A model generated the notes under the pieces. That model was not told the DNA's origin, ran no database searches, and saw nothing but the letters and a program-made list of their open reading frames with translations. Below, piece after piece: positions 1,615-16,461 of a stretch of 18,704 nucleotides of DNA. Within the stretch, counting starts at the first letter, position 1, and each line of letters begins with the position of its first letter. The DNA is taken from assembly GCA_003221005.1 (NCBI GenBank), contig QHTZ01000105.1, forward strand, positions 1 through 18,704. Direction: 5' to 3'. Made by a program: the position numbers and the translations under genes. The DNA comes from Gemmatimonadota bacterium (lineage in GTDB: Bacteria > Gemmatimonadota > Gemmatimonadetes > Gemmatimonadales > GWC2-71-9).

Positions 1615-1620
1615 GAGGAG
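1615..1620 (+). promoter_or_regulatory. Shine-Dalgarno site of the DUF6600 gene
   Basis: GAGGAG lies 6 nt upstream of ATG 1627. Confidence 0.8.
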
Positions 1621-1626
1621 ACCGCC

Positions 1627-3861
1627 ATGAGGATCGCTCGCCTGCTGACCCCAGCGTTGGTGCTGGCGTTCCTGCCCACGGCCGGGTTCACGAGTGCGTC
1701 GACCGCCGACCCGCCGACACGGGTGGGTCGCCTGAGCTTCCTCCGCGGGGCGGTCTCCTTCCGCCCGGCCGGGGGGGACGACTGGGCGGATGCAAGCCTC
1801 AACTACCCCCTCACGACCGGCGACCACCTCTGGAGCGACGACGACGGTCGGTCGGAAGTCTCCCTCGGCTCGACCGCCATCAGGCTCGCCCGGTACACCG
1901 CGGTCGGGTTCCTCGAACTGGATGACCACACCTCCCAGCTCCGGCTGTCGCAAGGGTCGGTCCAGGTGCGCCTCCGCAACCTCGAAGAGGACGACAGCTT
2001 CGAGATCGATACGCCGAACGGCGCGATCTCGCTGCTCCGGCCCGGCAGCTACGTCGTAGACGTGGACTCGACCGGCGACACGACCATCGTTACCGTGCGC
2101 CGCGGCGAGGCGGAGGTCACGGCCGCGGGGTCGTCGTTCAGCGTGCGCTCCGACCAGGCGGCCACGCTCGTCGGGACCGACTGGCCCACCTACGACGTGC
2201 ACGACCCGCTCGCCCCCGACGAGTGGGAGGACTGGTGCGCCAGCCGCGACCGCCGCGCCGACAACGCCCGCTCGGCCTCATACGTCTCCAGGGACATGCC
2301 CGGGTACGAGGATCTGGACGATTACGGCGACTGGCGCGTGACACCCACCTATGGCGCCGTGTGGGTGCCGCGCGGCGTGGTCGGCGGCTGGGCACCGTAC
2401 CGCTACGGCCACTGGGCCTGGGTCGAGCCGTGGGGCTGGACGTGGATAGACGACGCGCCATGGGGGTTCGCGCCGTTTCACTACGGCCGCTGGGTCTACT
2501 GGCAGGGCGGCTGGGGCTGGGTGCCGGGTCGCGTGGTGGCCGTGCGGCCCGTGTACGCGCCCGCGCTGGTCGTGTTCGTGGGCGGCGGCGGGTCGAGCCT
2601 GTACCTCAGGGTGGGCGGAGGCAGCGGCGTGGGTTGGTTCCCGCTCGCGCCGGGGGAGGTGTATGTCCCCGGCTACCGCGTGAGCGATGCGTACGTGCGC
2701 CGGGTGAATGTCACCAACGTGAACATCACCAACATCCGCATTACCAACATCGATGTGACCCGCGTCCGCTACAAGAACCGCGACGTCGCGAACGGCGTGA
2801 CGGTGGTGACGCGGGAGACGTTCGCGGGCGCGCGACCGGTGGACCGGAACGTGGTCGTCGTGACGCGGGAGCGCGCCAGCGCGGCGCCGGTCGTAGGCAC
2901 GACCGCGCCGGTCGCGCCGACGCGCGAGAGCGTCCTGATTCGTCGCGGTCCGGGCGGAGGGCCCGCCAGGCGCCCGCCTGACGTGACCGTCAGACGCCAG
3001 GTCGTGGTACGAAACACCCCGCCCCTGCCCCCCGTGCCGTTCGAAGCGCGAGAGCGGGAGCTCCGCGCCCATCCGGGCCGCCCGCTCGACGACGCGGCTG
3101 TCGCAGCGCTGCGCGGGCGAACTCCGGCCCATGGGGACCCGCTGGTGCGACCCGCGACGCCGCCCGGCCGGGCAGGCGGCGGCCCTGCTCCAGGCATGCG
3201 GCCGGCCCGCCAGGGCCTGCCCGAGGCGCGACCGGCGCCGCCGCCCGAGGAGCGCCGCGGGCGTGGCCGGCAGCGCGAGACGGCCCCACCTGCGGACCAA
3301 CGCGAGCGACCCGCCCCGGTCGAGCGTCGTGCTCCGCCCACCGAGCGGCCAGCCCCCGTCGAGCGTCAAACCCCACCGCCTGCTGAGCGACCGGCGCCCG
3401 TCGAGCGCCCGTCGCCCCGCGAGCGCCAACGGCCGCAACCACGCGAGAAGACCCCACCGCGGGACGAACGTGAGCGGCCGGCCCCCCCTGCCCCCCCGGC
3501 TCCGGAAGAGCGCCAAGCCCCGCCGCCTGCTGAGCGGCCGGCGCCCGTCGAGCGTCCCGCGCCCCGCGAGCGCGAGCGGCCGCAGCCACGCGAGAAGGCA
3601 CCGCCGGCGGAAGAACGGGAGCGCCCGGCCCCTGCTGAGCGCCCGGCGCCCCCGCCCACCGAGCGGCCCGCGCCGCCCGAGCGCCCGGCTCCCGCGCAAC
3701 CACCGCAGGCGCAGCCGCCAGAGCGCCCGACGCCGCCGCCGGCGGAGCGACCCGCGCCGCCACCCACGGAAAAGCAGGAGCCCGAGGGACGTCGCCAGGG
3801 CCCCGAGCGTCGGCGGCGGGCGAAACAGGACAGCAGTGAGACGCGGAGGGAGAAACCCTAA
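1627..3861 (+). CDS. Secreted FecR-like/DUF6600-domain protein with long Pro/Arg/Glu-rich disordered C-terminal tail (744 aa)
   Basis: ATG 1627 follows GAGGAG. Signal peptide MRIARLLTPALVLAFLPTAGFTSASTA is followed by DPPTRVGRLSFLRGAVSF...NYPLTTGDHLW (FecR-like beta domain), a Trp-rich block GWAPYRYGHWAWVEPWGWTWIDDAPWGFAPFHYGRW (DUF6600 signature) and a low-complexity tail. The ORF-track start at 1264 overlaps the opposite-strand gene and is rejected. Confidence 0.85.
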   Translation: MRIARLLTPALVLAFLPTAGFTSASTADPPTRVGRLSFLRGAVSFRPAGGDDWADASLNYPLTTGDHLWSDDDGRSEVSLGSTAIRLARYTAVGFLELDDHTSQLRLSQGSVQVRLRNLEEDDSFEIDTPNGAISLLRPGSYVVDVDSTGDTTIVTVRRGEAEVTAAGSSFSVRSDQAATLVGTDWPTYDVHDPLAPDEWEDWCASRDRRADNARSASYVSRDMPGYEDLDDYGDWRVTPTYGAVWVPRGVVGGWAPYRYGHWAWVEPWGWTWIDDAPWGFAPFHYGRWVYWQGGWGWVPGRVVAVRPVYAPALVVFVGGGGSSLYLRVGGGSGVGWFPLAPGEVYVPGYRVSDAYVRRVNVTNVNITNIRITNIDVTRVRYKNRDVANGVTVVTRETFAGARPVDRNVVVVTRERASAAPVVGTTAPVAPTRESVLIRRGPGGGPARRPPDVTVRRQVVVRNTPPLPPVPFEARERELRAHPGRPLDDAAVAALRGRTPAHGDPLVRPATPPGRAGGGPAPGMRPARQGLPEARPAPPPEERRGRGRQRETAPPADQRERPAPVERRAPPTERPAPVERQTPPPAERPAPVERPSPRERQRPQPREKTPPRDERERPAPPAPPAPEERQAPPPAERPAPVERPAPRERERPQPREKAPPAEERERPAPAERPAPPPTERPAPPERPAPAQPPQAQPPERPTPPPAERPAPPPTEKQEPEGRRQGPERRRRAKQDSSETRREKP
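3301..3765 (+). repeat. Intragenic repeats: 11 perfect ERPAP pentapeptides and a duplicated 42-aa/126-nt unit (3361-3486 vs 3508-3633)
   Basis: ERQTPPPAERPAPVERPSPRERQRPQPREKTPPRDERERPAP aligns without gaps to ERQAPPPAERPAPVERPAPRERERPQPREKAPPAEERERPAP, offset 147 nt. DNA is similar with synonymous changes. Confidence 0.85.
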
Positions 3862-3867
3862 CCGAAG

Positions 3868-3941
3868 TCGGGGCGCCGGGATTTGAACCCGGGACCTTCT
3901 GGTCCCAAACCAGACGCGCTACCGGGCTGCGCTACGCCCCG
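3868..3941 (-). tRNA. tRNA-Pro (anticodon TGG); CCA end not encoded
   Basis: Reverse complement folds as CGGGGCG TA GCGC AGCCCGGTA GCGC G TCTGG TT-TGG-GA CCAGA AGGTC CCGGG TTCAAAT CCCGG CGCCCCG A, a canonical cloverleaf. The next bases are CTT, not CCA. Confidence 0.97.
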
Positions 3942-4070
3942 CGTGGCCTAGAAGGTAATACCATGGTGGGCGACCGGTAGCACGAGTAGGGCCGCGCAGT
4001 CGATCGTTGGCGTGACAGCGTCTCGTCCGAGGCCGCCAAGGCGCTCGCTGCACAGACCGGTCCCGAGAGG

Positions 4071-4685
4071 TTAGGTGGAACGCCGCACCAATACCTCGAT
4101 CAGCGCCCGTACGGCACGTCCGCGGTGCGACACCCGCTGCTTCGCGGGGAGGGGCGCCTCGGCGAACGTCATCCCGAGATCGGCGGACCAGAATAACGGG
4201 TCGTAGCCGAACCCACCGGCGCCACGCGGCGTGGTGAGGATCCGCCCGTCGCAGGTGGCCTCAACGAGCTGCGGCTTCGCCGCCGGCGTCTCGATGTAGG
4301 CCACCACACAGCGATACCGTGCGGCACGGCGATCCTCGGGCACCGCCGCCAGCCGTTCGAGCAACAACGCATTGTTGGCGGCGTCGGACCCTTCCCCGTA
4401 CACACCCGCGAACCGCGCCGAGTGCACCCCCGGCTGCCCACCCAGCGCGTCCACCTCGAGCCCCGAGTCCTCGGCCAGGGCCGGGAGCCCGCTGCGTTTG
4501 GCGAAGTAGCGTGCCTTCGCGACGGCGTTTTCGACGAAGCTCGTGCCGCTTTCGATGTCCGCCTCTTCCGGGAGCCGCTCGAGGAGGCGGTCGGCCGGAA
4601 ACGTGACGGCGAACGGCAGGCCCGCCATGAGGTCCCGGAACTCGCGGATCTTGCCCTCGTTGCGCGTCGCGACAAGGAGCTTCAA
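4071..4685 (-). CDS. rdgB: RdgB/HAM1-family non-canonical purine NTP (dITP/XTP) pyrophosphatase (204 aa)
   Basis: Motifs LLVATRNEGKIRE, SFVENAVAKA, LAEDSGLEVDALGGQPGVHSARF, GFGYDPLF and KQRVSHRGRA are present. Probable start is TTG 4685, 4 nt after the upstream stop. Confidence 0.93.
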   Translation of the reverse strand: MKLLVATRNEGKIREFRDLMAGLPFAVTFPADRLLERLPEEADIESGTSFVENAVAKARYFAKRSGLPALAEDSGLEVDALGGQPGVHSARFAGVYGEGSDAANNALLLERLAAVPEDRRAARYRCVVAYIETPAAKPQLVEATCDGRILTTPRGAGGFGYDPLFWSADLGMTFAEAPLPAKQRVSHRGRAVRALIEVLVRRST

Positions 4686-4689
4686 GGGA

Positions 4690-5169
4690 TTACGCGTCCC
4701 CGCTCCGCAGGCGGGCGAGCAGGTCGCTGGTGGAGTGTCCCGGCACGAGCGCCACCCGGACGACGCGTCCCCCGCGGCTCTCCACTTCCCGGGCACCGAC
4801 GATCTGCTCGCGCGTGTAGTCAGCCCCTTTTACGAGCACGTCGGGCCGCAGCAGCTCGATGAGCCCGAGGGGGATGTCCTCGTCGAACAACACCACAGCG
4901 TCGACGCACGCGAGGGCGGCGACGAGCCGGGCCCGCTCTCCTTCAGGGACGAAGGGACGGCCCGGGCCCTTGGCGAGGCGCCGTGCCGAAGCGTCGCCGT
5001 TCACCGCGACCAGCAGCGCGTTCCCCTCGGCGCGCGCTGCTTCAAGCAGCGCGACATGCCCCACGTGCAACAGGTCGAAGACGCCGTTCGTGAACACGAC
5101 CGGACCGCGCTGCCCGGCGCGCCACGCCGCCGCGGCTGCCGCCGTGCGAATCTTGGTCGCCGTGGTCAC
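4690..5169 (-). CDS. rfaE2: D-glycero-beta-D-manno-heptose-1-phosphate adenylyltransferase (stand-alone RfaE/HldE domain II, 159 aa)
   Basis: Motifs [15 protein letters not shown] (HxGH), [26 protein letters not shown] and GHSTS are present. GTG 5169 overlaps the antiporter TGA (GTGA). Confidence 0.9.
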
Positions 5170-6389
5170 TCGCGCCCCATGGTAGCGCCCCAGCGACCCA
5201 GAGCCCAGGTGAGCAACGGCGGCGTCACGAGCGTCGTGCCGATCACCATGACGAGGAGGGCGCTGAACAGCTCCCGCGACAGCACCCCCGCGGTGAGGCC
5301 GACGTTCGCGAACACGAGCCCCACCTCGCCGCGCGGCGCCATGCCGATCCCCACGGCCCAGCGATTGAACCGGCGCCACGGCACGGCCCACCCCGCGGCG
5401 AGCTTGCCCACAACGGCGATCACGAGCAGCCCGCCCGCCACGGCCAGGACGCCGGCGTTCCGGGGCTCGAGCGGATTCAGCACCCGGAGATCTACCGCCG
5501 CCCCGATGGAGAGGAAGAAGACAGGTACGAAGATCTCGGCCACGGGCTTCATCTGTTGCTCGATCGTGCGCGCCTGGTTGGTGCCGGAGAGGATGATGCC
5601 TGCCGCGAACGCTCCGATGATGAGGGCTGAGCCCGCGCGGTCGGCGAGGGCCGCCAGGAGCAGGAGGAACGCGAACGCGGTCACGAGCAACACGCCGCGT
5701 ACGCGCATGCGCTCGATCAGCGCGAAGATGCGGGGCGCGAGCGCGAGCCCCACCGCGATCGCTACGGCAAGAAATCCGATCCCGACGGCGAGCACCCGCC
5801 CCACCCCCCACACGGTGAGGGGGCGGCCGCCCGCAAGCCCGGACACGACGGCCAGGATGGCGAGTCCCAGCACGTCATCGATCACCGCGGCCCCGAGAAT
5901 GATCCGGGCTTCGACGGTGTCGGTGCAGCTCAGGTCGGCGAGCACGCGAGCCGTGATCGCGACCGACGTTGCGGTGAGGGTCGCGCCCACGAACAGGGCC
6001 GTGACCGTCAGGCCCGAGACGGAATACTCCGGGCGGTGCAGCGGGGAGATCCAGTAGAGAAAGCCGAGCAGGAACGGCACCGCGACGCCGACCACGGCCA
6101 CGGCGCTCGCCGCGGGCCCCACCCGCATGAGGGTGCGGAACTCAGTGGCGAGGCCGATCTCGAACAGCAGCACGACGACGCCCACCAAGGCCAGGAGGTG
6201 GATGACGGGCGTGAGCGGGTCCCCTCGCCCCGTGGGGATGACGCCCAGCACGCTGCCACCCAGGAGGATGCCCACCGCCAGCTCGCCCAACACCGGGGGC
6301 TGCCGAATGCGCTCGCACAGCTCGCCGGTGAACTTCCCGGCCAGGAGCATGATGCCGAGCACGGTGAAGAAGCGGACGGCGAGCGGCAC
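5166..6389 (-). CDS. Cation:proton antiporter (Na_H_Exchanger family, NapA/Kef-type CPA2, 407 aa)
   Basis: About 12-13 hydrophobic segments. Motifs [58 protein letters not shown] and [13 protein letters not shown] are present. No C-terminal KTN domain. Confidence 0.92.
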
Positions 6390-6754
6390 TAGAGCGGCTG
6401 CGTGGACGTCGGGTGGAAGGCGAAGGTGTGGTTAAAGAAGGGGAGGGTGACCGTCTCGCTGTAGGCGGTCTCGATGGTGATCTGGCGCGGCGACGTGTTG
6501 CGCCGCACGACCACCCGCGCCGCCGAGTCCGGCAGCCCGATGTCCTGCACTGCAGCCGCGAGACGCCGCTGAATCGTACCGTTGTCGAGCGCGGAGGCGA
6601 GCCGCGCCTGCGAGTCCATCTCGTCGAGCAAGCGGTAGTAGCGGAAGAATACCTCACCGATGTTGACGCCGTAGTAGAGGAGCGCGACGAAGATCAAGAG
6701 CGAGAACAGGCATCCCGTCGTGCCCGCTCCGTGCGCCCCCGTACGGGTCACCAC
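6389..6754 (-). CDS. Small single-TM protein, DUF4845-like (~121 aa)
   Basis: GTG 6754 or 6751 overlaps the upstream stop. The N-terminal hydrophobic helix GCLFSLLIFVALLYYGVNIGEVFFRYY and the C-terminal ITIETAYSETVTLPFF..FAF pattern resemble DUF4845. Its TAG overlaps the next GTG. Confidence 0.6.
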   Translation of the reverse strand: MVTRTGAHGAGTTGCLFSLLIFVALLYYGVNIGEVFFRYYRLLDEMDSQARLASALDNGTIQRRLAAAVQDIGLPDSAARVVVRRNTSPRQITIETAYSETVTLPFFNHTFAFHPTSTQPL

Positions 6755-7272
6755 TGCGACTGGGCCCCGTCCACGATCTCGTTCACGAGCTTCTGGAGCG
6801 CGATCTTCCGCCCATCCGCGGGCTGCTGGCCCTGGGTGTACTCCCCCACCACGCTCAACCCCTGGCGCTGCCACAGCGTCTTGTTGTGGCGCTGGTCCAC
6901 AATCTCCACGTCGACGGTGACCTGGACCTGGCGCTTCGTGACGTCGGCGCGGCCGGCGCCCGGCTGGAAGGCGAGCGGCACGTCGGGGTCGTAGCGGACC
7001 ACGCGCCCGCGCACGACGGCGTCGGCGTTCGATTCCCCGGCCTGGCGCAATCCCAGCCGCCCCTGGATCGCCTCGGCGACGGCGTCATTCACTTCCTTGG
7101 TCAACGCCGGCTCCGGCGTCTGATTGTCGAACGGGAGGATGGCGACGGTCCTGATGTCTGGCAGACCGCCGCCCTTGAAGCTGTACAGGCAGGCGGCGAG
7201 CGCCAGCGTGGCGATGCTAGCGCCGACGGCGCCACAGCGAGGGCGCGAGCACGACCGCCGTGTCCACCCCAA
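6748..7272 (-). CDS. lptE: LptE-like LPS-assembly lipoprotein (start uncertain; TTG 7272 is the nearest in-frame start upstream of the lipobox)
   Basis: Lipobox LAAC is followed by LYSFKGGGLPDIRTVAILPFDNQTPEPALTKEV...ADAVVRGRVVRY...VQVTVDVEIVDQRHNKTLW...LVNEIVDGAQSQW, matching the LptE pattern seen in Bacteroidota and other non-proteobacterial diderms. Confidence 0.75.
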   Translation of the reverse strand: MGWTRRSCSRPRCGAVGASIATLALAACLYSFKGGGLPDIRTVAILPFDNQTPEPALTKEVNDAVAEAIQGRLGLRQAGESNADAVVRGRVVRYDPDVPLAFQPGAGRADVTKRQVQVTVDVEIVDQRHNKTLWQRQGLSVVGEYTQGQQPADGRKIALQKLVNEIVDGAQSQW

Positions 7273-7930
7273 CCACCGTGAGTTCAAAGCGAGCCGGGGC
7301 CTCCGGGAAATCGATGCGGGCCTTGGTCGGCTGCGCGCCGACGGTGAGCTCCGTGCGGCTGCGGGCCACGACCTTCCCCTCGCGGCGCCACTCCGCCTCC
7401 AGCGTCCGCGACGGGCCGTCGGTGGCGACATAGTCGAGCGTGTCCGCATCCTGAACGAACCGCCAGATCGTGCGCGGCGGCGTCTGCACGCCCGCCACGC
7501 TGGCGGCGGAGTCGGGAGGCCGCACCACGCCGAGCGCCGCCCACAGCATGCGCACGGCGGGCACGAGGGAGCGGAAGTTCTCCTCGGGGTCGGCCCACAC
7601 CGCTGAGTCGCCGACGACCACGGCGGCGCCGGACCCGAGGCCGAGCGGCCCGGTGTAGTCGAACCGCAGCGAGTCGGGCGGCGCCACGCGCGCGGTGCCG
7701 CGCCCGCCCCAGCGCCGCCGCCGGTCCTCATAGCGGAACCGGAACCGGATCGCTGTGTCACGACCGGGCAGCGTGCGCTGCGCCCAGGCGAGCGCCTGTA
7801 CCCGATCCGCCGGGGTGAGCGCTACGGCGACCAGCGGTGCCAACCTGCCGACGCAGCCGGCGACAAGCGCACAGGCGGCAATGTAGGAAAGGGCGCCGAG
7901 GCGGTCAAGCGAAAGCTGTTGCCGGCTCAA
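7217..7930 (-). CDS. Putative lipoprotein, possibly LolA/LolB-fold (DUF4292-like) (237 aa)
   Basis: TTG 7930 overlaps the Omp85 TGA. Lipobox LVAGC is followed by a beta-rich body with GRGTARVAPPDSLRFDYTGPLGLG, resembling the 'PDxLRxdxxgPlG' strand-turn of LolB/DUF4292-like proteins. The fold call is inference. Confidence 0.55.
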   Translation of the reverse strand: MSRQQLSLDRLGALSYIAACALVAGCVGRLAPLVAVALTPADRVQALAWAQRTLPGRDTAIRFRFRYEDRRRRWGGRGTARVAPPDSLRFDYTGPLGLGSGAAVVVGDSAVWADPEENFRSLVPAVRMLWAALGVVRPPDSAASVAGVQTPPRTIWRFVQDADTLDYVATDGPSRTLEAEWRREGKVVARSRTELTVGAQPTKARIDFPEAPARFELTVVGVDTAVVLAPSLWRRRR

Positions 7931-10785
7931 TAGTTAAACCCGAAGAAGAAGTCCACGAACTTGCTCCCGGTGCTGTTCGCGGGGAGGGCGTATCCGCTCT
8001 CGTTGCCAGAGTGAAACCGGTATCCCAGGTCGAGGCGCAGCACCAGCGGTGGGCCCACGGGCATTCGCAGGCCCAACCCCGCGCTGCCGACCGTGCCGCG
8101 ATCGACGGTCGCGGCGCTCCAGGCGCGGCCGGCGTCCAGGAACAGCGCGCCCTGGACGCCCGGAAACCGCGCCACGCCGAACGGGAAGCCAATCGACAGG
8201 AAGTCGGTGATCGGGAAGCGCCATTCAGTGTTGACGAGCCACGCCCGCGTGCCGGCGATGTAGCCGTAGATCGGATAACCGCGCAGCGCCCACGGCCCGC
8301 CGACGTTCACGGGTCGCGGCCGGTCGCCGCCGGCGTAGTACGCGAAGCCGCGCACCGCCAAGGCGCTGCGCAAGGACGTGCGGAAGTAGCGCCGCCAGTC
8401 GCCCGCGACCACCCAGGTGTCGAACCGGCCGTGGCTGATGTCGTTCACCAAGCCGCCCGTGAGGTTGTAGCGCTCGCCATCGATCGGACCGGTGGCGAGC
8501 CAGAGCGTGTTGTCTTTGACGTAGCTGACGTAGTTGGACGCGAGCCACCCCACGCGATGCAGGTCGGTGAGCCCGCTGTTGAAGTAGTCCGCCCGGGAGA
8601 TGTCGAAGCGGTCGGAGTGCTCGAGGCTGTACTCCGCCTCGATCCGGCGGAAGCGCGACAACGGATAGCGGATCTCGGCGACGACGCCGGCCGAGGTCTC
8701 CTGAAACACGGTGCTCAAATCGCCCTCGAAGAACAAACCGCGCAGCCGAAACGCCCCGACGCCCCAGTTGACGCGGTGCGCTTGGTTCAAGTAGAAGACG
8801 GAGCCATTGACGTTCTCGAGCAGGTTGCCGAGCCCCTGCCCTTGGAACGACGACAGTGTGAAGAACAGGTCGTGATCTCCGAGCATGTCGCTGAGCAGGA
8901 ACACGGCGCCCTGGGCCGACCCGAGCCCCGGCGCCACGAGGGCATCGCCGGCCGCGAAGTCGAGGGTGTACTTCCGCCCGTAGGGTGACGCATCGGTGCG
9001 CGCGTACTGCGGGCTCGACAGCTCAGCCCAGGTCCAGGTCGGGGGCGCGCGGTCCTGGGCACTCGCGAGCGCGACGTGGGGGGCGCTCGCATCGCCCGCC
9101 GGGGACGATGGCGCCGCGTAGATGTTGAAACTCAGGTCGGCAAAGCCGCCGAACACGACCTCGTGCTGGCTCTCCACCCACTCCGGGTCGAACGCCCCGT
9201 TGAGGGTGTTGGTCTCGCGGCGCCCGGCGCCGGTCGAGTCCACCGAGTAGAGCTGGAACAGTCCATCGCGGTCCGAGGAGAAGTAGATCAGGCCGGACGT
9301 GGCGGACCACCGCGGCTGGTCGTCGTGCCACTTGCCATACGTGAGATAGCTGATCGCGCCCGTGCGCAGGTCGAGCTTGAACAGGTTGCGTGCGCCCTCG
9401 TGCCCGAACGCGGTCCGGTCGGAGCAGAAGACGACGGTGTTGCCGTCCGGGCTGAACGTCGGGTCGATGTCCTGGTAGCGGTCCGACGTCAGGCGCTCGA
9501 GCCGGCCGTCGCTCAGCCAAAGGCGGTACAGGTCAGAGTACCCGGAGACCGCCAGGCCCGAGAAGACGACGCTCCGGCCGTCCGGGGCCCACGCCGGCGA
9601 CAGGATGGAGACAAGCTCGGGGAACTCGTACCGCCCCACCACCTTGTGCTGGGCGAGGTTCCAGAAGAACAGCGCGTCCCGGTCCAGGTACTTGCTGCTG
9701 AGCACCACCACCCCGCCGGGCGACACATCCATGCGCGACTCGAAGAAGTGGAACGACTCGAACTGGTCGGTCCGCTCCCCTTTGACCACCACGCGGCGCC
9801 GCCCACCGGTCAGGCGTTGCGAGTAGATGTCGGTGTAGCCGCTCGAGGGCGAGAAGTACAGGACCGCATCGGTCGAGTCGCCGGGGAAGCGATATACGAC
9901 GGGCTTGATGGCGAGCTTGGTCAGGAGCCGCGCCCGGATCGCGAGCGGCTCCCCCGTGGCGACCACCGGGTAGTAGCGTTGCCGCATCCAGAACTGCCAC
10001 TCCTCCGACAGCTGCTGCAGCGGCCGCCCGTACACCGCCCGGACCTCTTCCTCAAAGGTCGCATACTTCCATAGGTCCTGGTACATCGCGTCGATCCGCC
10101 ATTCCCCGTAGGTCTGGGCGAGGAAGCGATGGACGCTCGACCCCAACGGATAGATAATCGCGCCGTAGGCCTCCGCGAGGTCGCCCAGCGCTGGCAGCCG
10201 CCCGGATACCGTCATGTCGCGCAGGAACATCTGGTCCCGCGTATCCTCGCCCGCCGACCAGAACTCGGCCAATCCCTCGGTCCACCACAGCGGGAACGAC
10301 ACGTGGTGAATCCGCGGGTAACGCCGCAACGCTTCGCCGGCGACGCCGAGCTGGAAGACGTGGACCAGCTCGTGGCGGATCGTGTGACGGAAGTCGTGGT
10401 AGCTCCCGTTGAAGGGCAGCGCCACCCGCTGCTTCAGAAACTCCGTGACACCCAGCAGGCCTTCCGGCGGCACGAACGGGAGGACGTTGGTCTGCTCGAA
10501 GTCGGTATGCGACGCGTAAATGATCAGCGGAATGCGACGCGAGACGTGGTGATTGAAGCGCTGCTGCAGGACCTCGAAGCTCGCTTCGGCGTAGGCCAGC
10601 GCGACCCGCCCGAGCTCCTCTTCTTCCGGATAGTAGTAGAGGTCCACATGCTCGCCGCGCAGCATGTGCCAATCGAAGCCCCGGTACTGGATCTTGTTCT
10701 GACCGAAGGCACCGAGCTGTGCCGCCGCGACGCCGGGCAAGAGCGCGACCGCGAGCACCGTCCGCCACAGATGACCGACGGTCAC
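7927..10785 (-). CDS. Omp85-family outer-membrane protein: signal peptide + MA-clan zinc-peptidase-like domain + PD40/TolB-like beta-propeller + BamA/TamA-type barrel (952 aa)
   Basis: Signal peptide ...PGVAAA|Q is followed by FGQNKIQY and HELVH (10374-10360) ...PLWWTEGLAEF. PD40 repeats SPAWAPDGRSVVF, DPTFSPDGNTVVFCSDR and QPRWSATSGLIYFSSDR follow. Barrel motifs are LRGY and LFLDAG, with terminal beta-signal FFFGFNY. GTG start overlaps the upstream TGA. Confidence 0.88.
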   Translation of the reverse strand: MTVGHLWRTVLAVALLPGVAAAQLGAFGQNKIQYRGFDWHMLRGEHVDLYYYPEEEELGRVALAYAEASFEVLQQRFNHHVSRRIPLIIYASHTDFEQTNVLPFVPPEGLLGVTEFLKQRVALPFNGSYHDFRHTIRHELVHVFQLGVAGEALRRYPRIHHVSFPLWWTEGLAEFWSAGEDTRDQMFLRDMTVSGRLPALGDLAEAYGAIIYPLGSSVHRFLAQTYGEWRIDAMYQDLWKYATFEEEVRAVYGRPLQQLSEEWQFWMRQRYYPVVATGEPLAIRARLLTKLAIKPVVYRFPGDSTDAVLYFSPSSGYTDIYSQRLTGGRRRVVVKGERTDQFESFHFFESRMDVSPGGVVVLSSKYLDRDALFFWNLAQHKVVGRYEFPELVSILSPAWAPDGRSVVFSGLAVSGYSDLYRLWLSDGRLERLTSDRYQDIDPTFSPDGNTVVFCSDRTAFGHEGARNLFKLDLRTGAISYLTYGKWHDDQPRWSATSGLIYFSSDRDGLFQLYSVDSTGAGRRETNTLNGAFDPEWVESQHEVVFGGFADLSFNIYAAPSSPAGDASAPHVALASAQDRAPPTWTWAELSSPQYARTDASPYGRKYTLDFAAGDALVAPGLGSAQGAVFLLSDMLGDHDLFFTLSSFQGQGLGNLLENVNGSVFYLNQAHRVNWGVGAFRLRGLFFEGDLSTVFQETSAGVVAEIRYPLSRFRRIEAEYSLEHSDRFDISRADYFNSGLTDLHRVGWLASNYVSYVKDNTLWLATGPIDGERYNLTGGLVNDISHGRFDTWVVAGDWRRYFRTSLRSALAVRGFAYYAGGDRPRPVNVGGPWALRGYPIYGYIAGTRAWLVNTEWRFPITDFLSIGFPFGVARFPGVQGALFLDAGRAWSAATVDRGTVGSAGLGLRMPVGPPLVLRLDLGYRFHSGNESGYALPANSTGSKFVDFFFGFNY

Positions 10786-12842
10786 CGGTGAATGCTCCGG
10801 ATGCGGTCGCCCTGCGCGAGCGCCGCAAGCACGGGCGCTCCCGCGACAACCCGCCCGAATACGGTGTAGGTGCCGTCGAGGTGGGGCTGTGGGGAGTGGG
10901 TGATGAAAAACTGGCTTCCGCCCGTGTCGGGGCCTGACAGCGCCATGCCCATCGTACCCGTCTCATAGCGGGTGGGATTCAGCTCGTCGCGCAGCACGAA
11001 CCCCGGACCACCCCACCCGTCGCCCCGGGGATCGCCGTCCTGAATCACGAAGTTGGGGACGACGCGGTGCCAGCGCGATCCATCAAAGTACCGCCGATCC
11101 ACCAGCGTCAGGAAGGCCGCGACCGTGAGGGGCGCTTCACCGGCGAGCAGATCCACCACCAGGCTGCCGCGGTCGGTCTCGATCGTCACCCGTGGGAGCG
11201 GCTGGCCGGTGAGCGCGGGGACGAGGTAACGCCGCACCACGTCCCGGTAGTCGGCCTCCGTGCGCCCCGTGGCGATCGGCGCGGCCGGCCCCCACTGCTG
11301 CGCAGCGTCGCCGAGGCCGTTCGCCGCGAGCCGGCGGACCAGATAGTCGTCGGGCCGGGGGACGGTCGCGACGAAGCGCGTCGCGACCTGAAGGCGTCCC
11401 TCGGCGCTCGCACGGGCAATCGCGGCGAGCGCGGCGACCGCCGACAGCCGCGCGTCGTCGAACGGATCGCCGGCCGCGCGCGCGTACGCGCGTACCAACC
11501 GATCGATGTCTCCCACCGCCGCACGGCGCGCGAGCAGATCCGCGGCGACGCTGCGCACCGCCGGGTCGGCAGCTTCGAGCAGCGCGCGGGCGCGGCTCAG
11601 AGCGGCCGTGTCCTCAGGGGGGACGATCCGGCCCAAGGTCTGGAGGGCCTGCGCCACGACCCGGCCGTCAGGGTCAGAGAGCTGCGCCTGGAGCCTGGTG
11701 CGGTCCTGCGCCGCCCCGAACGCCTCGGCGGCGACACTCCGCCAGTTCCAGTCGGCCTCGGCGAGCAGCGCGTCCGCAGCCCGCACGCCCGCGGCGCTGT
11801 CGGCCTGGGCAAGCGCGATCACCGCCTGACGCCGCAGCGCGAATGCCGCGGCCTGCACCCGGCCCTCGAGCGCCGCCACACTCGCGCTCCCGCCCAGCAC
11901 GCCCAGCGTTGTTTCTGCCTGGACGGCCACGTTCACCAGGGGATCGTTCAGTAGCGGGATCACTGCCTGCGCGAGGCCGCTGTCGTGGAACGAGGTGAGG
12001 GCGCGCAGCGCGTTGACCCGCACGGCGGGGTTTGTGTCCGAAAGGAGCGGCCGAAGCTGGTCCGCCACGCCCCGCCACGCGACGTGCGCGCTGTCGAGGA
12101 GCTGGCGCGTGATACCCCGAGCGGCGCTGGCGCGCACCCGCGGATCGGGATCCTGGAGGCCGCTTACCAACAGCGGGGCGCCCTGCCGCACCCGCAACCG
12201 TCCGAGCGAGTAGAGCGCGCGCCAGCGCACCGTCGGATCGACATCGTCCACATACCCGGCGACGGCGCTGACGGGCGCCCGCTCGCCCAGGCGCCAGGCC
12301 TCGAGCAGCGCCGCCTTGCGCGCCGGTGGGGTCACGACGCCCGGCGTGTAGCCGTTACCGAGAATTTCACGCAGGTCGGCCGCCGCGAGCGCGCCCCCGA
12401 TCCGGGCGAGCGCGGTGGCACCCTCGATCTGCGGAACGCCTTGTGCTGCCTCCGGAACGGCACGCACCAGGGCAAGCAGCGGCCCGACAGCGCGCGGGTC
12501 CTTGAGCAAGCCGAGGGCGAACGCGGCCGCCGCTTGCACGCCGGGGCTCGAATCCGAGAGCGCGGGAATGAGGAGCTCGACCGCAGCCGGGTCGCCGATC
12601 CGCCCCGCGACGAGCGCCGCCTGGCGCCGCACCCGCTCGTCCGCGTCCCGCAACCCCGTGCTCACGAGCGCCGCGTCGAAGTTGCGCGCGTCGGCTGCTG
12701 CGAGCAGGTGGGCCAGCTCGCCGATCTGCGCCTCGTCCAGTTGCTGAGCCGCCAGGGGCGTGCCCGGGACGGCGGCCCACCAGAACAGCGCGGCGCTACA
12801 GGCGCACCGGATCCGGAATCGGCGTGAGCAGCTTGCTGACAT
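10782..12842 (-). CDS. Exported HEAT-repeat protein with C-terminal cyclophilin-type peptidyl-prolyl isomerase (start 12842 or 12872)
   Basis: Signal-like N-terminus ends ...TPLAA|QQ. Tandem HEAT_2-like units include LRDADERVRRQAALVAGRIG, LSDSSPGVQAAAAFALG, DPTVRWRALYSLG and DPDPRVRASAA. Cyclophilin motifs HRVVPNFVIQDGDP, GGPGF and GGSQFFITHSPQPHLDGTYTVFGRV follow. Confidence 0.9.
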   Translation of the reverse strand: MSASCSRRFRIRCACSAALFWWAAVPGTPLAAQQLDEAQIGELAHLLAAADARNFDAALVSTGLRDADERVRRQAALVAGRIGDPAAVELLIPALSDSSPGVQAAAAFALGLLKDPRAVGPLLALVRAVPEAAQGVPQIEGATALARIGGALAAADLREILGNGYTPGVVTPPARKAALLEAWRLGERAPVSAVAGYVDDVDPTVRWRALYSLGRLRVRQGAPLLVSGLQDPDPRVRASAARGITRQLLDSAHVAWRGVADQLRPLLSDTNPAVRVNALRALTSFHDSGLAQAVIPLLNDPLVNVAVQAETTLGVLGGSASVAALEGRVQAAAFALRRQAVIALAQADSAAGVRAADALLAEADWNWRSVAAEAFGAAQDRTRLQAQLSDPDGRVVAQALQTLGRIVPPEDTAALSRARALLEAADPAVRSVAADLLARRAAVGDIDRLVRAYARAAGDPFDDARLSAVAALAAIARASAEGRLQVATRFVATVPRPDDYLVRRLAANGLGDAAQQWGPAAPIATGRTEADYRDVVRRYLVPALTGQPLPRVTIETDRGSLVVDLLAGEAPLTVAAFLTLVDRRYFDGSRWHRVVPNFVIQDGDPRGDGWGGPGFVLRDELNPTRYETGTMGMALSGPDTGGSQFFITHSPQPHLDGTYTVFGRVVAGAPVLAALAQGDRIRSIHR

Positions 12843-13209
12843 GCTCGGGAATCCGCGTGAGAGTGTGCTCATGGGTGAGCGAGAGTAGTGCCGTTTCGCC
12901 GGTGGCGAGCAGGTCTCCCGTCCCGGCGCGCTCGACGGCATAGCCGAAGGTCACGCGACGCGACGCCAGCTCGCGTACCCAGCAGCGGACCTGCACGAGG
13001 TCGTCGTAGCGGGCGGGGGCGCGGTAGCGGACCTTCACCTCCGACACAGCGAGGTACACGCCCTGTTGCTCCAGCTCACGATATGTCAGCCCCGTTTCGC
13101 GCATCAGCTCCGTGCGGGCGCGGTCGAACCAGATGAGGTAGTTCGCGTGATAGACCACGCCCATCTGGTCGGTCTCGGAGTAGTTGACGCGCAGGGTAAT
13201 CGTGCCCAT
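12796..13209 (-). CDS. YbgC/FadM-family acyl-CoA thioesterase (hotdog fold, 137 aa)
   Basis: Motifs LRVNYSETDQMGVVYHANYLIWFDRARTE and VRYRAPARYDD are present. Start ATG 13209. Confidence 0.92.
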   Translation of the reverse strand: MGTITLRVNYSETDQMGVVYHANYLIWFDRARTELMRETGLTYRELEQQGVYLAVSEVKVRYRAPARYDDLVQVRCWVRELASRRVTFGYAVERAGTGDLLATGETALLSLTHEHTLTRIPEHVSKLLTPIPDPVRL

Positions 13210-13297: not shown

Positions 13298-14047
13298 GTG
13301 CCTCCTCTGCCCTCCCGCGTTGTGGTGGTCGCAGACGCCCATTTGGGTCAGGCCGCCCCCGCCGTAGAGGCGGCATTCCACGCGTTCCTCGCGGCCATCC
13401 CCGACCTCGGCGACGCGCTGCTGATCAACGGCGACCTGTTCGACTTCTGGTTCGAGTATGGCCGCGTGATCCCGCGGCGCCACTTCGCGACCGTGGCTCG
13501 GCTGCACGACGTCTGCCGCCGCGGCATCCCGGTCACGCTCGTTGGCGGTAACCACGACCGCTGGGGCGGCGAGTTCCTGACCAAGGATCTCGGCATCGCC
13601 TTCTATGCCGGCGAGGCGGAGCTCAACGTGGCGGGGCGCCCGACGTTCGCGGCGCACGGCGACGGGCTGACGGAGCAGCACTGGGCGGCGAAAGTGATGC
13701 ACCGGGTGACACGCCACCCGCTCACGATCCGCCTGTTCCGCTCACTGCACCCGGACCTGGGGTTTTGGATCGCCGATAAGCTGTCAGGGCGCCTGGCGGA
13801 CAACACGCGCGATCGCGCCGTGCTCGATCGGGCCGCGCGGGCGCAGGTCCAATACGCCAAGGACTTCCTGGCGCGCCGCCCCGACCTCGAGCTCGTGATC
13901 CTCGGCCATACGCACCGGCCCGCGCTCGAGCAATTTCCCGACGGCCGCGCCTACCTCAACCCGGGAGCGTGGCTCGACGGGTATCGCTATGCGGTCGTGA
14001 CGCGGGATCGGATCGAAATGCGGAGCTTCGAGCCCCATTCATCTTAG
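13298..14047 (+). CDS. lpxH: UDP-2,3-diacylglucosamine diphosphatase (calcineurin-like metallophosphoesterase, 249 aa)
   Basis: Motifs ADAHLG, GDLFDFWFEY, GNHDRW, AHGDGL, ILGHTH and YLNPGAW are all present. Confidence 0.85.
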   Translation: MPPLPSRVVVVADAHLGQAAPAVEAAFHAFLAAIPDLGDALLINGDLFDFWFEYGRVIPRRHFATVARLHDVCRRGIPVTLVGGNHDRWGGEFLTKDLGIAFYAGEAELNVAGRPTFAAHGDGLTEQHWAAKVMHRVTRHPLTIRLFRSLHPDLGFWIADKLSGRLADNTRDRAVLDRAARAQVQYAKDFLARRPDLELVILGHTHRPALEQFPDGRAYLNPGAWLDGYRYAVVTRDRIEMRSFEPHSS

Positions 14048-14536
14048 CGGCACACTCACCCCGATCCGCCCCGGTCCCACCTCGAGCTTCAGCTCCTTCG
14101 GGAAATCCTGCAGATGCGCCGCCACGAATGCATCCGCGCCCGCGAAGAGGTGGTTGAAGATCCAGAGCACCACCCAGTCCTGCACCTGCTGGCGCTTTCC
14201 GCCGATGCTCTCGGAATGGGACTGCCTCATGTAGCGCTCCTCCTGCACCGCGCGCAGAGTCATCATCATCGTGACGCCTTCCCAGATCACGAACATGGCT
14301 CCCGCCACGTGATGCCCCGTCGCCGCCTGACCCCATCCCGGGAGCAGGAGCGAGCGCCATGTCGCGGCGCCGGGCTTCATGAACCGGGACGTGTCGGGAG
14401 TTGTCGCCACAGGCGTCGCTGGGGTCGTGTCGCGGACCTGGGCGGTCAGGCGGGTAAGCGGGTGGGCAGTTAGCAAGAACCCAAGTAACACCGCACGGCT
14501 AGCCGCCTGACGGATAACCCGACCCGCCCCCGTCAT
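14039..14536 (-). CDS. DUF5683-like membrane/exported protein (165 aa)
   Basis: ATG 14536 overlaps the kinase TGA (ATGA). Signal peptide ends ...RLTA|Q, followed by AATWRSLLLPGWGQ and ...ADAFVAAHLQDF, the DUF5683 pattern. Confidence 0.65.
   Translation of the reverse strand: MTGAGRVIRQAASRAVLLGFLLTAHPLTRLTAQVRDTTPATPVATTPDTSRFMKPGAATWRSLLLPGWGQAATGHHVAGAMFVIWEGVTMMMTLRAVQEERYMRQSHSESIGGKRQQVQDWVVLWIFNHLFAGADAFVAAHLQDFPKELKLEVGPGRIGVSVPLR
14441..14472. repeat. Degenerate 8-bp tandem repeat (4 units) inside a signal-peptide coding region
   Basis: GGCGGTCA GGCGGGTA AGCGGGTG GGCAGTTA on the + strand. Confidence 0.45.
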
Positions 14537-15426
14537 CCCGCCACCAAGACGTTCAGACGTCCCGGCTCCACTCGGACGCTGCACTGCCGCTGCTCGAGCG
14601 CGCGCAGCTCGCCGTCCAAGTGCAGCAGCAGCGGTGCGTCCGGAGTGTGCAGCACGACCTCACGCGTGCGAAACAGCTTGATCTCCTTCATGCCGAGATG
14701 GGTACCACGCATCACGCGCGGCACGGCGCCGAGGAAGCGCAACAACGAAACGCGCCGCACGAGACACACGTCGAAGTAGCCGTCGGCGGGATCCGCGCCC
14801 GGGGCAAACCGGTAGGCTCCCCCCGCCGTGGTGCCGTTGCAGACTTCGACCATCATGACGTACCCCCGCTCGCGCCATTCGGCCGACGAGATCTCACAGA
14901 GCGGCGCCCGGTACCCAAAGAACGCCCTGGGCAGCGGGACCACATACGACCACAGTCCCTTCAGGCCGGGCATCGCGTTCCGCACCCTGACGACCTCGGG
15001 CCCGAAGCCGAGCCCCATGCTGTTGACGAAGTACTCGTCGCCGACGCGGCCAACATCGAAGCGTCGCGCGCGGGCGGCGGCGAGCTGCGCGACTGCCCGC
15101 AGCGGTGCATGCCGCGCCACTCCGACTAGCTTCGCGAAATCGTTGCCGGTACCGACCGGAACGACACCGAGCTGGGCGGCCGCACGTTGGCGCAGCATCC
15201 CGTTCGCGACCTCGTGCACGGTGCCGTCACCGCCGACGGCGACGATGCGGCGAACGCCGTCTTCCGCCGCCCGCGCCGCGAGCTCGCGGGCGTGCCCCGG
15301 TCCCTCGGTCCGAGCGAGCTCGACCGACCACCCTTGCGTGCGGAACGCGCGGATGACGGAGTCTTCGAGGCGGCGCCCCGCGCCGCCCCCTGCCGCGGGG
15401 TTGAGGATGACGTGCGCGTGAATCAA
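14533..15426 (-). CDS. Diacylglycerol-kinase-family lipid kinase (YegS/DagK/BmrU-like, 297 aa)
   Basis: Motifs ILNPAAG, AVGGDGTVHEVANG, VPVGTGNDFA, FDVGRV, CNGTTAGG and LHLDGE are present. Start TTG 15426. Confidence 0.92.
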   Translation of the reverse strand: MIHAHVILNPAAGGGAGRRLEDSVIRAFRTQGWSVELARTEGPGHARELAARAAEDGVRRIVAVGGDGTVHEVANGMLRQRAAAQLGVVPVGTGNDFAKLVGVARHAPLRAVAQLAAARARRFDVGRVGDEYFVNSMGLGFGPEVVRVRNAMPGLKGLWSYVVPLPRAFFGYRAPLCEISSAEWRERGYVMMVEVCNGTTAGGAYRFAPGADPADGYFDVCLVRRVSLLRFLGAVPRVMRGTHLGMKEIKLFRTREVVLHTPDAPLLLHLDGELRALEQRQCSVRVEPGRLNVLVAG

Positions 15427-15464: not shown

Positions 15465-16406
15465 CTATTTCTGGCCGATCCTCTTGAGTCGGATGGAGCC
15501 GTTCACCGAGTTGAGCTCGATGCGGCGGCCGCCGGTGCCGAGCGTGCCCGCTGCGTGATGGGCCACGAACTTGCTCCCAACCGTTAGGGGAAAGTCGCTC
15601 TCGATGGTTCCGTTCACCGTGTTCGCGTCCACCGCGGCGTCGATGCGGGCCGGGAGCTCCACGGTCACCGCCCCATTCACGGTCATCACCTTGACCTGGC
15701 CCGTGTCGGCGAAGCCACGCATGGAGGCGCGGACGCTGCCGTTCACCGAGTACGCGTTCACCGGGCCCCGCGCGGTCTCCGCCTGGACGTCGCCGCTGAC
15801 GGTGCCGGCGACGACAGGTGCGCTGGCGCCGACCACGCGCACGGCTCCGCTCACGGTGGTCGCGCCGATCGCGACCCCACGCGGGAGCCGGACGGTGAAG
15901 TTGACCCGAACGTCGTTGTGCGAGACGTGTCGCTGGTGGTACGCCTCGCCCGGGCCACAGCGGTTGTCCCGGTCCCCCCTGCCCCACAGCGCGCAGATCG
16001 TGATGCCGTCGCTCCCGGGCGCGGCGACGATTCGCACGGTCCCGGGATCAGAGTGTCCGAAGCGCTTCACGGCGCTGACCTCGAGCGAGTCGCCGCTGGT
16101 GGGCTCGACGGTGACCGACCCCGACCGGTCGCGGATCCAAACCCATTGTCGTGGCGCGACGGGCGCGCGGTACGTCCAGGTGTCGCCGGTGGCGAGGGGG
16201 CCGACGGCGGAATCCGCGGCGTCGTCGAGGCCGCTCATCAGGCCGCCCAGGCCCCGTGGCAGCATGCCCGTCAGCTGCTGGCGCGCCTGCCGCGCCCGAC
16301 CCACGAGGTGGTTGATGACCAAGCCGAGCACCAGCGCTGCCGAGCAGAGCGCGACGAAGCGGATGATGTCGCGGCGCCAGCCGAGCCAGAACGCCTTCAG
16401 GTCCAT
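15465..16406 (-). CDS. DUF4097-family beta-strand-repeat (adhesin-like) protein with N-terminal TM anchor (313 aa)
   Basis: ATG 16406 follows AAGGAG. TM helix FVALCSAALVLGLVINHL is followed by repeats TTVSGAVRV, GTVSGDVQA, YSVNGSVRA, MTVNGAVTV, NTVNGTIES and NSVNGSIRL. Confidence 0.85.
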   Translation of the reverse strand: MDLKAFWLGWRRDIIRFVALCSAALVLGLVINHLVGRARQARQQLTGMLPRGLGGLMSGLDDAADSAVGPLATGDTWTYRAPVAPRQWVWIRDRSGSVTVEPTSGDSLEVSAVKRFGHSDPGTVRIVAAPGSDGITICALWGRGDRDNRCGPGEAYHQRHVSHNDVRVNFTVRLPRGVAIGATTVSGAVRVVGASAPVVAGTVSGDVQAETARGPVNAYSVNGSVRASMRGFADTGQVKVMTVNGAVTVELPARIDAAVDANTVNGTIESDFPLTVGSKFVAHHAAGTLGTGGRRIELNSVNGSIRLKRIGQK

Positions 16407-16461
16407 GGAGGGACTCCTTCCGGGGGCCGTACGGGCCCCCGCCCGACGCGGTTTCGGGCGA

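Follow-up and report, generated by a model that had tools for sequence, protein, structure and literature searches.

Here, we describe a string of envelope genes in an 18,704-nucleotide stretch of DNA (the window) from a Gemmatimonadota bacterium (assembly GCA_003221005.1, contig QHTZ01000105.1). The window is one contig (C17) of a 2.79-Mb genome that is 94% complete and has a G+C content of about 70%. Nine genes follow one another without a break on the minus strand, from 13209 to 4071. Five consecutive members of this string are our main subject: a HEAT-repeat protein with a cyclophilin domain (10782..12872), a 952-residue fusion of a peptidase, a propeller and an Omp85-type barrel (7927..10785), a LolB-like lipoprotein (7217..7930), the lipoprotein LptE (6748..7272) and a small membrane protein (6389..6754). 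A prior interpretation made from the letters and reading frames alone (the sequence-only reading) had described five consecutive envelope genes with overlapping stops and starts, and such an arrangement is indeed found. Read from the sequence, the HEAT-cyclophilin/fusion junction is GTGA, the fusion/lipoprotein junction is TTGA, the lipoprotein and LptE genes overlap by about 55 nucleotides (nt), and the junction between LptE and the small protein is again GTGA. The five genes are real, rather than chance open reading frames (ORFs) of a 70% G+C genome, because each has hundreds of homologues and their order is conserved in relatives. The choice of five is arbitrary, however, because the same coupling extends in both directions. 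Upstream, the 3′ end of a thioesterase gene overlaps the start of the HEAT-cyclophilin gene; downstream, the small protein is joined through TAGTG to a cation/proton antiporter, the antiporter through GTGA to RfaE domain II, and RfaE domain II across a gap of 2 nt to RdgB.

A peptidase, a propeller and a barrel in one protein

The fusion was divided into three parts by profile searches, an AlphaFold2 model (from a 44-sequence alignment; mean predicted local confidence, pLDDT, 82.9; predicted TM-score, pTM, 0.82) and Foldseek. All three lie on the minus strand, as do the motifs within them. An N-terminal alpha/beta metallopeptidase domain (residues ~40–280; 9946..10668) matches Peptidase_MA_2 with an E value of 2.5e-7. 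Its HExxH motif (H138, E139 and H142; 10360–10374) and Glu170 (10276–10278, in the context EGLAE) are invariant in 44 sequences, with identity as low as 39%, and the same holds for the corresponding residues of 10 distant members of the family. Glu170 sits at the third-ligand position and, as in gluzincins, is presumably the third zinc ligand. The domain is thus predicted, from this invariant motif, to hold an intact gluzincin-type zinc site. Searched against the sequences of the PDB, the domain gave 0 matches at E≤10; the fusion paralogs of this genome match BSP and DUF6055 weakly.

The second part is a TolB/PD40-type beta-propeller (residues ~285–560; 9106..9933), matched by PD40 (5.5e-14) and by the NCBIfam TolB model TIGR02800 (8.1e-27). 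The model places about 24 strands in this region, a count that fits six four-stranded blades, and the best Foldseek match is TolB (2w8b, 1.6e-11), with the propellers of tricorn and S9 peptidases also matched. Fusion homologues, of which 1841 were found at E≤0.001 among 8000 candidates scored, carry two more precomputed Pfam families, PF26549 and PF26550, which are presumably tricorn-related. The position of the propeller beside the peptidase suggests substrate gating.

After a short, partly helical linker (residues 560–605 of the model), the protein ends in an Omp85-type beta-barrel (residues ~606–952; 7930..8970) of 16–17 long strands. Foldseek matches the barrel to BamA (5or1; E 7.6e-9 and, across about 400 columns, a TM of 0.62 on the target), and further to 6qgw (BamA) and 7e4h (Sam50). 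By sequence, the fusion shows a faint match to the NCBIfam model of the TamL C-terminus (E 0.036). The Omp85 family PF01103 is found on 3 of the 120 homologues listed, and the genome's own fusion paralogs reach it at 5.3e-8 and 1e-7. A long loop between strands 808–820 and 847–858 carries R835-G836-Y837 (8275–8283); R835 is invariant and G836 and Y837 are at least 90% conserved in the 44 sequences, and among the 10 distant members R836 and Y838 never vary, with G837 reaching at least 90% conservation. A conserved (V/I)RG(F/Y) motif marks loop 6 of the Omp85 superfamily. On the evidence of the modelled fold, the barrel is of the Omp85/BamA/Sam50 type. No POTRA domain was found in the fusion, either by profile or in the AlphaFold2 model. 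Judged by eye, its N-terminus resembles a cleavable signal peptide.

The proteins encoded around the fusion

The lipoprotein encoded directly downstream of the fusion (minus strand) is 237 residues long and matches no Pfam family at E≤10 and no NCBIfam family. Its lipobox (...LVAGC), judged by eye, ends in Cys26, a residue with at least 90% conservation among 36 sequences. The modelled structure (pLDDT 88) has a LolA/LolB fold. The top Foldseek match is Porphyromonas gingivalis LolB (9tpm, 1.3e-6), and nearly all of the 41 matches at E≤0.001 are LolA or LolB. VIA-align gives Z scores of 14.5 to 11.2 to chains of the LolA/LolB superfamily, with 13.1 for 9tpm, 12.6 for LolA 2w7q and 11.3 for Escherichia coli LolB 1iwm. 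The LolB family PF03550 has no match anywhere in the genome. A lipid anchor argues for LolB over LolA, and from the modelled fold the lipoprotein is most likely this lineage's equivalent of the receptor and insertase LolB. The sequence-only reading assigned both the LolB-like fold and the protease-propeller-Omp85 domains correctly, as judged by profiles, AlphaFold2 and Foldseek.

LptE (minus strand) starts at a TTG at 7272, within the preceding gene. It is the sole match to PF04390 in the genome (3.7e-11; 44.2 bits against a cut-off of 23), and its lipobox, LALAAC, was read from the sequence together with its start. The small protein that follows on the same strand is bitopic and about 120 residues long. 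The sequence-only reading had called it DUF4845-like; no Pfam family matches at E≤10, PF16137 (DUF4845) included, and the sole lead to such a weak likeness comes from ESM-Atlas neighbour clusters, in which 15–42% of members carry DUF4845.

Upstream of the fusion, the HEAT-cyclophilin gene (minus strand) begins with an ATG at 12872 or 12842. Its product matches HEAT_2 (1.1e-37) and Pro_isomerase (7.4e-34). Among solved cyclophilins, the C-terminal 150 residues match 2mvz best (6.4e-34), in an alignment that covers the HRV..F..Q and SQFFI blocks. The protein is a predicted cyclophilin-type peptidyl-prolyl isomerase, by PF00160 and by this match to a solved structure, and it is probably periplasmic, going by an N-terminal signal-like segment judged by eye.

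Gene order across Gemmatimonadota

We examined 121 genomes of the phylum, the genome of the window included, which fall into families f1–f12. Every one of them has some member of the fusion family (121/121). An ortholog of the fusion, defined by a best match at E≤1e-110 with at least 40% identity, occurs in 57 of the 121, where absence means that none was found among the seven first-look candidates scored per genome. By family, the ortholog is found in 35/54 genomes of f1, 1/28 of f2, 3/3 of f3–f5, 0/16 of f6–f8, 1/1 of f9, 12/13 of f10, 2/3 of f11 and 3/3 of f12. Its presence tracks genera (g3, 7/7; g4, 7/7; g10, 0/5), and an empty fusion site was seen directly in 19 loci. The LolB-like lipoprotein, searched by profile, occurs as a single copy in 95 of the 121 genomes; it is found in all genomes of f1 and f3–f8, in 22/28 of f2, and in 0/20 genomes of f9–f12. 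Without two unpublished genomes (G057 and G097), the counts become 56/119 for the fusion, 93/119 for the lipoprotein and 34/53 for the fusion in f1. Wherever fusion and lipoprotein are both present, their genes adjoin (39/39 genomes, or 38/38 without G057).

Forty loci were taken for a closer comparison of gene order, 20 chosen by fusion match and 20 by lipoprotein match, the latter mostly from genomes without a fusion ortholog. Within the class Gemmatimonadetes, all 13 fusion-chosen loci have the order fusion, lipoprotein, LptE, and in 12 of these the HEAT-cyclophilin gene lies directly upstream of the fusion. Among the lipoprotein-chosen loci, 19 of 20 have no fusion at the site. LptE lies no more than 200 nt downstream of the lipoprotein in 32 of 33 loci (19/20 lipoprotein-chosen) and 1.3 kilobases away in the other. 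The HEAT-cyclophilin gene is present in 23 of the 33 and missing in nine of the 20 lipoprotein-chosen loci, and by tblastn the small protein follows LptE in 23 of 33 related loci. In nine loci (L071–L073, L075–L079 and L090) the HEAT-cyclophilin gene abuts the lipoprotein gene, leaving no room for a fusion; in three others (L074, L080 and L081) it is the thioesterase that abuts the lipoprotein gene; and in f7 an LpxH-like gene directly faces the lipoprotein/LptE pair. Synteny is therefore kept well beyond close relatives, as the sequence-only reading would have it, and it is not kept as a five-gene unit: the HEAT-cyclophilin and the fusion are lineage-variable accessories just upstream of a lipoprotein/LptE core. 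The simplest reading of this distribution is that the fusion position is old in the operon and that the fusion has been lost repeatedly around the retained core.

Outside the class Gemmatimonadetes, the fusion follows the thioesterase in f9 and f12. In f10 it lies one zinc-ribbon gene away from RfaE2, and in one locus it adjoins RfaE2 directly. The zinc-ribbon protein of f10 (180–310 residues; L061:7592–8494, L063:7955–8497 and L064:7565–8497) is encoded directly after the fusion, in the place held by the LolB-like gene in Gemmatimonadetes. We also note an unusual ortholog in genome G023 (C9:112742–115561), a single frame of 1031 residues that aligns only at fusion residues 3–288 and 550–952; its propeller part is replaced or highly diverged.

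The fusion family in other phyla

An exhaustive HMMER scan of 1.84 billion representative sequences returned 1073 clusters (50% identity) at E≤1e-30, many of them covering the full length at 29–50% identity; one, at 36%, is named Cloacimonetes. Taking one genome per species, 547 of 599 candidate stretches encode a relative of the fusion. The best 80 of these 547, to which all neighbourhood counts below refer, are labelled Ignavibacteriae, Bacteroidota, Calditrichota, Zixibacteria, KSB1, Latescibacterota, Eisenbacteria and others. Profiles and phmmer searches of the ORFs in these 80 loci found no LptE, LolB-like, HEAT-cyclophilin, thioesterase or RfaE2 neighbour; LptE evolves fast, and divergent copies may escape such a search.

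A different set of neighbours is seen instead. Downstream sequence of 1200 nt or more is available in 69 loci, and in 51 of them the next gene downstream on the same strand encodes a BamB-like propeller (PQQ_2, 3.6e-49; NCBIfam BamB, 1.2e-48, which is under the equivalog cut-off), often overlapping the stop codon of the fusion. A strict lipobox is present in 31 of these 51 proteins, and looser ones occur in others. A PEGA-domain protein usually comes next after the BamB-like gene, and in Eisenbacteria it directly follows the fusion. In 14 of the 80 loci the string also includes large HEAT_2 proteins; a jackhmmer search of these loci with the window HEAT-cyclophilin gave no matches, and the HEAT proteins are linked by Pfam repeat type only. 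In 24 loci of the set (L100–L179), a bacterial phosphoglucose-isomerase-type SIS protein is encoded directly upstream of the fusion on the same strand, often preceded by a phosphoenolpyruvate-utilising enzyme (PtsI-like); this is a metabolic neighbour.

The Gemmatimonadota copies fall into a single clade in a quick maximum-likelihood tree (Shimodaira–Hasegawa-like approximate likelihood ratio, SH-aLRT, 99), and this clade is sister to the Eisenbacteria copies (97). The two together stand beside the other phyla, and the genome's own paralogs fall outside on long branches. On these comparisons, the window gene appears to be the local ortholog of an old family spread over phyla of the Fibrobacteres-Chlorobi-Bacteroidetes (FCB) group, with neighbours that are usually envelope proteins. 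One locus labelled Candidatus Limnocylindrales, of the Chloroflexota (L135), has a fusion-family gene inside the Eisenbacteria clade; its bin label or contig assignment may be wrong.

Canonical machinery and fusion paralogs in the genome

Most canonical factors for outer-membrane assembly that we sought are encoded elsewhere in the genome. BamA, with four scored POTRA stretches and an Omp85 domain, is on C40, a second POTRA-Omp85 protein on C120 and BamD on C88. There are two SurA_N_3 proteins (C88 and C49), two M48 peptidases (C50 and C102), a BamB-like propeller (C19), a LolA (C32) and an LptD of the LptD_2 type (PF19838; C88); PF04453 and PF03968, also used for LptD, matched nothing in the genome. 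Among the canonical parts sought, LolB alone is without a match.

Two roles considered for the fusion were rejected on these grounds. It is not a replacement for BamA, as the genome has a separate POTRA-bearing BamA. Nor is it an LptD equivalent plugged by LptE, given the separate LptD_2 gene and the 16-stranded barrel of Omp85 type.

The genome also encodes two fusion paralogs, one of 1061 residues on C84 and one on C32 split into 441 and 652 residues. The neighbours of both are unrelated to the envelope, except for one SPOR-domain protein. The split paralog (L095:8640–11835, minus strand) consists of overlapping ORFs, of which the 441-residue one is peptidase-like with PD40 and the 652-residue one has PD40 and Omp85; the gene may be truly split, or the break may stem from a frameshift or from misassembly. 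Two further loci deserve mention. At the LptD locus on C88 (L099:5916–9440), a single frame of 1174 residues covers TatC (residues 14–225) and LptD_2 (from residue 469); these are probably two adjacent genes in the same frame of a high-G+C genome, the alternative being a fusion. On C3 (~643–5276, minus strand; L097), an 860-residue protein joins an Omp85 barrel to about 600 N-terminal residues without a Pfam family. The ORF after it shows a weak match (E 7.7e-5) to the profile of the PEGA proteins from other phyla, echoing the fusion/PEGA layout.

Genes flanking the five

The operon core is set among lipopolysaccharide (LPS) and lipid genes, namely an LpxH-like gene, a YbgC-type thioesterase and RfaE domain II. 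The LpxH-like metallophosphoesterase (13298..14047, plus strand) is divergent from the operon and is kept beside it in related genomes. It matches Metallophos (4.5e-11) and the NCBIfam LpxH model PRK05340 (1.4e-23), the latter at 83 bits, under the equivalog cut-off of 134. The first gene of the coupled string encodes a YbgC/FadM-family acyl-CoA thioesterase (12796..13209, minus strand; 4HBT_2, 1.1e-18; TIGR00051, 94.2 bits against a cut-off of 68.7), which scores under the cut-off of the tol-pal YbgC equivalog model. Downstream of the small protein are three more minus-strand genes. The CPA2-family cation/proton antiporter (5166..6389; Na_H_Exchanger, 8.2e-63; TIGR00932, 1.4e-45) is part of the string in some relatives only. 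RfaE domain II, the heptose-1-phosphate adenylyltransferase (4690..5169), matches TIGR02199 at 1.5e-49, with 167.5 bits against a cut-off of 181.5. The string ends with the RdgB/Ham1 non-canonical nucleoside triphosphate pyrophosphatase (4071..4685; Ham1p_like, 4.7e-57; TIGR00042, 150.7 bits, above its cut-off). The LpxH-like and RfaE2 genes flank the five, as the sequence-only reading had noted.

Past the LpxH-like gene, a DUF5683 membrane protein and a YegS/DAGK-type lipid kinase (14039–15426, minus strand) are kept in place in many relatives, so that the wider neighbourhood is lipid- and envelope-themed. The window also encodes an 865-residue FecR and DUF6600 protein (1264–3861, plus strand), a DUF4097 "toastrack" protein (15465–16550, minus strand) and a histidine kinase of the hybrid type (17013–18704, minus strand) that carries an Hpt domain and two receiver domains.

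Discussion

We lean, by a modest degree, toward the following explanation. The genes belong to an envelope operon found class-wide in Gemmatimonadetes, whose core is the LolB-like/LptE pair; the HEAT-cyclophilin and the outer-membrane peptidase fusion are accessories to it, and the five proteins do not form a single machine. The fusion itself is, judging from its folds, invariant residues and neighbours, most likely a zinc peptidase that is anchored in the outer membrane, faces the periplasm and is gated by its propeller. The 16-stranded Omp85 barrel would hold the protein in the outer membrane, with the six-bladed TolB-type propeller and the gluzincin-type peptidase hanging into the periplasm. 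There, the propeller and the peptidase would bind clients bound for the outer membrane and then trim or degrade them, together with lipoprotein partners. Some of the operon products may also be in physical contact. A complex prediction with fusion residues 31–605, LptE and the LolB-like protein, run without controls, returned a score of 0.00 ("no answer") and speaks neither for nor against binding.

Several points weigh against this explanation. The Peptidase_MA_2 match of the fusion, at 31.1 bits, falls just short of the cut-off of 32.4. The last 349 residues match no Pfam family at E≤10, PF01103 included, and the fusion is not among the genome's eight PF01103 matches. The lipoprotein has no sequence match to LolB (PF03550) or to DUF4292, the LolB family of Bacteroidota. 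At the top of its VIA-align list, a "lipoprotein-sorting" domain and DUF1329 are level with LolA3 and LolB; the LolA/LolB fold is common to proteins of other roles and cannot alone separate LolB, LolA and DUF1329. Translational coupling by itself says little about shared function, because RdgB and the antiporter are joined just as tightly. Finally, fusion orthologs were sought among a few top candidates per genome, and the tree comes from a quick, unfinished search with the paralogs on long branches.

How the five genes relate to one another can be read in other ways. The sequence-only reading proposed one dedicated pathway for the maturation of outer-membrane proteins and lipoproteins, in which the HEAT-cyclophilin would stand in for SurA, the fusion for BamA, BamB and BepA, and the lipoprotein for LolB, with LptE/LptD as client. 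The genes are certainly adjacent and translationally coupled; the fusion abuts the LolB-like gene in every genome that has both, the HEAT-cyclophilin gene is directly upstream in all but one of the 13 class-level fusion loci, and the HEAT-repeat proteins near 14 of the 80 fusion relatives in other phyla provide an independent echo of the HEAT/fusion link. However, the genome has separate BamA, BamD, SurA-like, M48, BamB-like, LolA and LptD genes, so a set of analogues for SurA, BamA with BamB, BepA and LolB does not hold up as proposed: a POTRA-bearing BamA, SurA-like proteins and M48 peptidases exist separately, and only for LolB does the genome lack a canonical match. Moreover, 19 of the 54 genomes in its own family, and almost all of those in f2 and f6–f8, keep the operon but lack the fusion, the operon does without the HEAT-cyclophilin in nine of 20 loci, and LptE or LolB-like neighbours number 0 in the best 80 loci of other phyla. 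We regard a dedicated pathway as very improbable. At the other extreme, the string may be a mixed housekeeping operon, where the fusion and the HEAT-cyclophilin reside by history or co-expression and are functionally unconnected to LptE and to the LolB-like protein. RdgB, the antiporter and the thioesterase share the string with identical 1–4-nt overlaps, the fusion is dispensable at the site in many lineages, and its partners differ in other phyla, all of which would suit a mixed operon. Yet the insertion point is kept in 39/39 genomes while fusion identity drops from 100% to about 47% across five families, other classes keep the fusion by the thioesterase (f9 and f12) or near RfaE2 (f10), and nearly all conserved neighbours of the fusion in any phylum are envelope proteins. 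This makes a mixed operon unlikely in our judgement.

Other alternatives concern single proteins. It is conceivable that the barrel moves the protease and propeller to the cell surface for degradation of extracellular proteins, in the manner of type Vd self-export by PlpD. PlpD is a precedent within the Omp85 superfamily, Heinz & Lithgow raise the option for other Omp85 proteins without POTRA (PMC4104836), and the presence of several family members in every sampled genome of the phylum would suit nutrient scavenging. Self-export is hard to square with the missing POTRA between the N-terminal domains and the barrel, with a BamB-like lipoprotein as the usual partner elsewhere, and with neighbours here that are periplasm-facing envelope factors. 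The tree, furthermore, roughly tracks phyla, unlike the patchy spread that the same article ascribes to horizontally moved, secretion-type members (PMC4104836). We give self-export very little credence. The lipoprotein, for its part, could be a lineage-specific accessory subunit of the LptD/LptE translocon rather than a general LolB. It adjoins lptE, which has no second copy in the genome, in 32 of 33 loci, lineage-restricted translocon lipoproteins do exist, LptM and LptY being such subunits in Enterobacteriaceae as reported in PMC12644819, and an expanded Lpt machinery is described for Bacteroides (bioRxiv 10.64898/2026.10.02.756314). Against a subunit of this kind, LptY is lipocalin-like and LptM a short, peptide-like lipoprotein according to the same account (PMC12644819), neither with a LolA/LolB fold, and the genome has a LolA and no other LolB candidate. 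We consider a translocon subunit quite unlikely.

The architecture of the fusion has been noted before. Heinz & Lithgow (2014) catalogued a "WD40-Omp85" subfamily, described there as having a TolB-like propeller ahead of the Omp85 barrel and lacking POTRA domains, likened to a fusion of BamA and BamB and listed without a function or gene partners (PMC4104836). Our fusion fits this architecture as described. It differs from the description in the invariant HExxH...E domain before the propeller; the word "peptidase" occurs 0 times in the text of that article. A literature search found nothing on a protease domain or on partners of this Omp85 family. What appears to be new here, on comparison of sequences, is the invariant HExxH...E, the spread over the FCB group and, outside Gemmatimonadota, the BamB-like lipoprotein gene directly downstream.

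Comparison with better-studied systems places the fusion between several of them. With BamA of the E. coli beta-barrel assembly machinery (BAM; BamABCDE) it shares the barrel fold and the conserved R-G-Y loop, and a BamB-like gene is coupled to it in other phyla; it differs in having no POTRA and in coexisting with a separate POTRA-bearing BamA and a BamD. The fusion cannot be the essential insertase, because many genomes in the same family lack it. BepA, which associates with BAM and serves in quality control of LptD, is likewise a zinc metallopeptidase with HExxH; both are placed at or close by an Omp85 protein and, in the genome, near Lpt genes. BepA, however, pairs an M48 peptidase with TPR, whereas the fusion has an MA-clan peptidase (Peptidase_MA_2/BSP-like) and a propeller, covalently joined to the barrel. 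PlpD (type Vd; patatin, POTRA and Omp85) resembles the fusion in having an enzyme domain N-terminal to an Omp85 barrel. PlpD has a POTRA and exports its passenger, while the fusion has none and its partners point to the periplasm. In tricorn and in prolyl oligopeptidase/DPP-IV, too, a propeller lies next to a peptidase; the propeller of the fusion matches TolB best, its catalytic domain is a gluzincin and not a serine peptidase, and the barrel would anchor it in the outer membrane.

For the lipoprotein, the closest comparison is LolB of Proteobacteria and its structural orthologs in Bacteroidota (DUF4292; 9tpm), the latter recently demonstrated in PMC11885536, bioRxiv 10.64898/2026.02.05.704107 and PMC13103446. 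Common to them are the lipobox cysteine, the LolA/LolB fold, a single copy and a LolA in the genome; the lipoprotein differs in matching neither PF03550 nor DUF4292. Its constant adjacency to lptE has no counterpart mentioned in the portions of the Bacteroidota LolB papers that were consulted.

It is also conceivable, though improbable, that the fusion is the core of a second, protease-bearing BAM-like machine in FCB phyla, with BamB-like, PEGA and HEAT partners, and that in Gemmatimonadetes this machine has been wired to the LolB-like/LptE operon. If this were true, a protease-insertase dedicated to the task would check lipoprotein delivery and LptD/E assembly in Gemmatimonadetes.

Omp85 proteins are central to the building of the outer membrane, and the subfamilies without POTRA that were catalogued in 2014 are still without an assigned function. 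One of these subfamilies now gains testable features, namely a predicted zinc-peptidase site, a spread over FCB phyla and a coupled BamB-like lipoprotein partner. Additionally, the lipoprotein is nominated as a candidate LolB for Gemmatimonadota, a phylum in which our literature search found no discussion of LolB. That it stays so constantly paired with lptE suggests that the delivery of lipoproteins may be linked to the LPS translocon. Current models of outer-membrane biogenesis are not overturned by these results, which offer defined candidates for a group of little-studied diderms.

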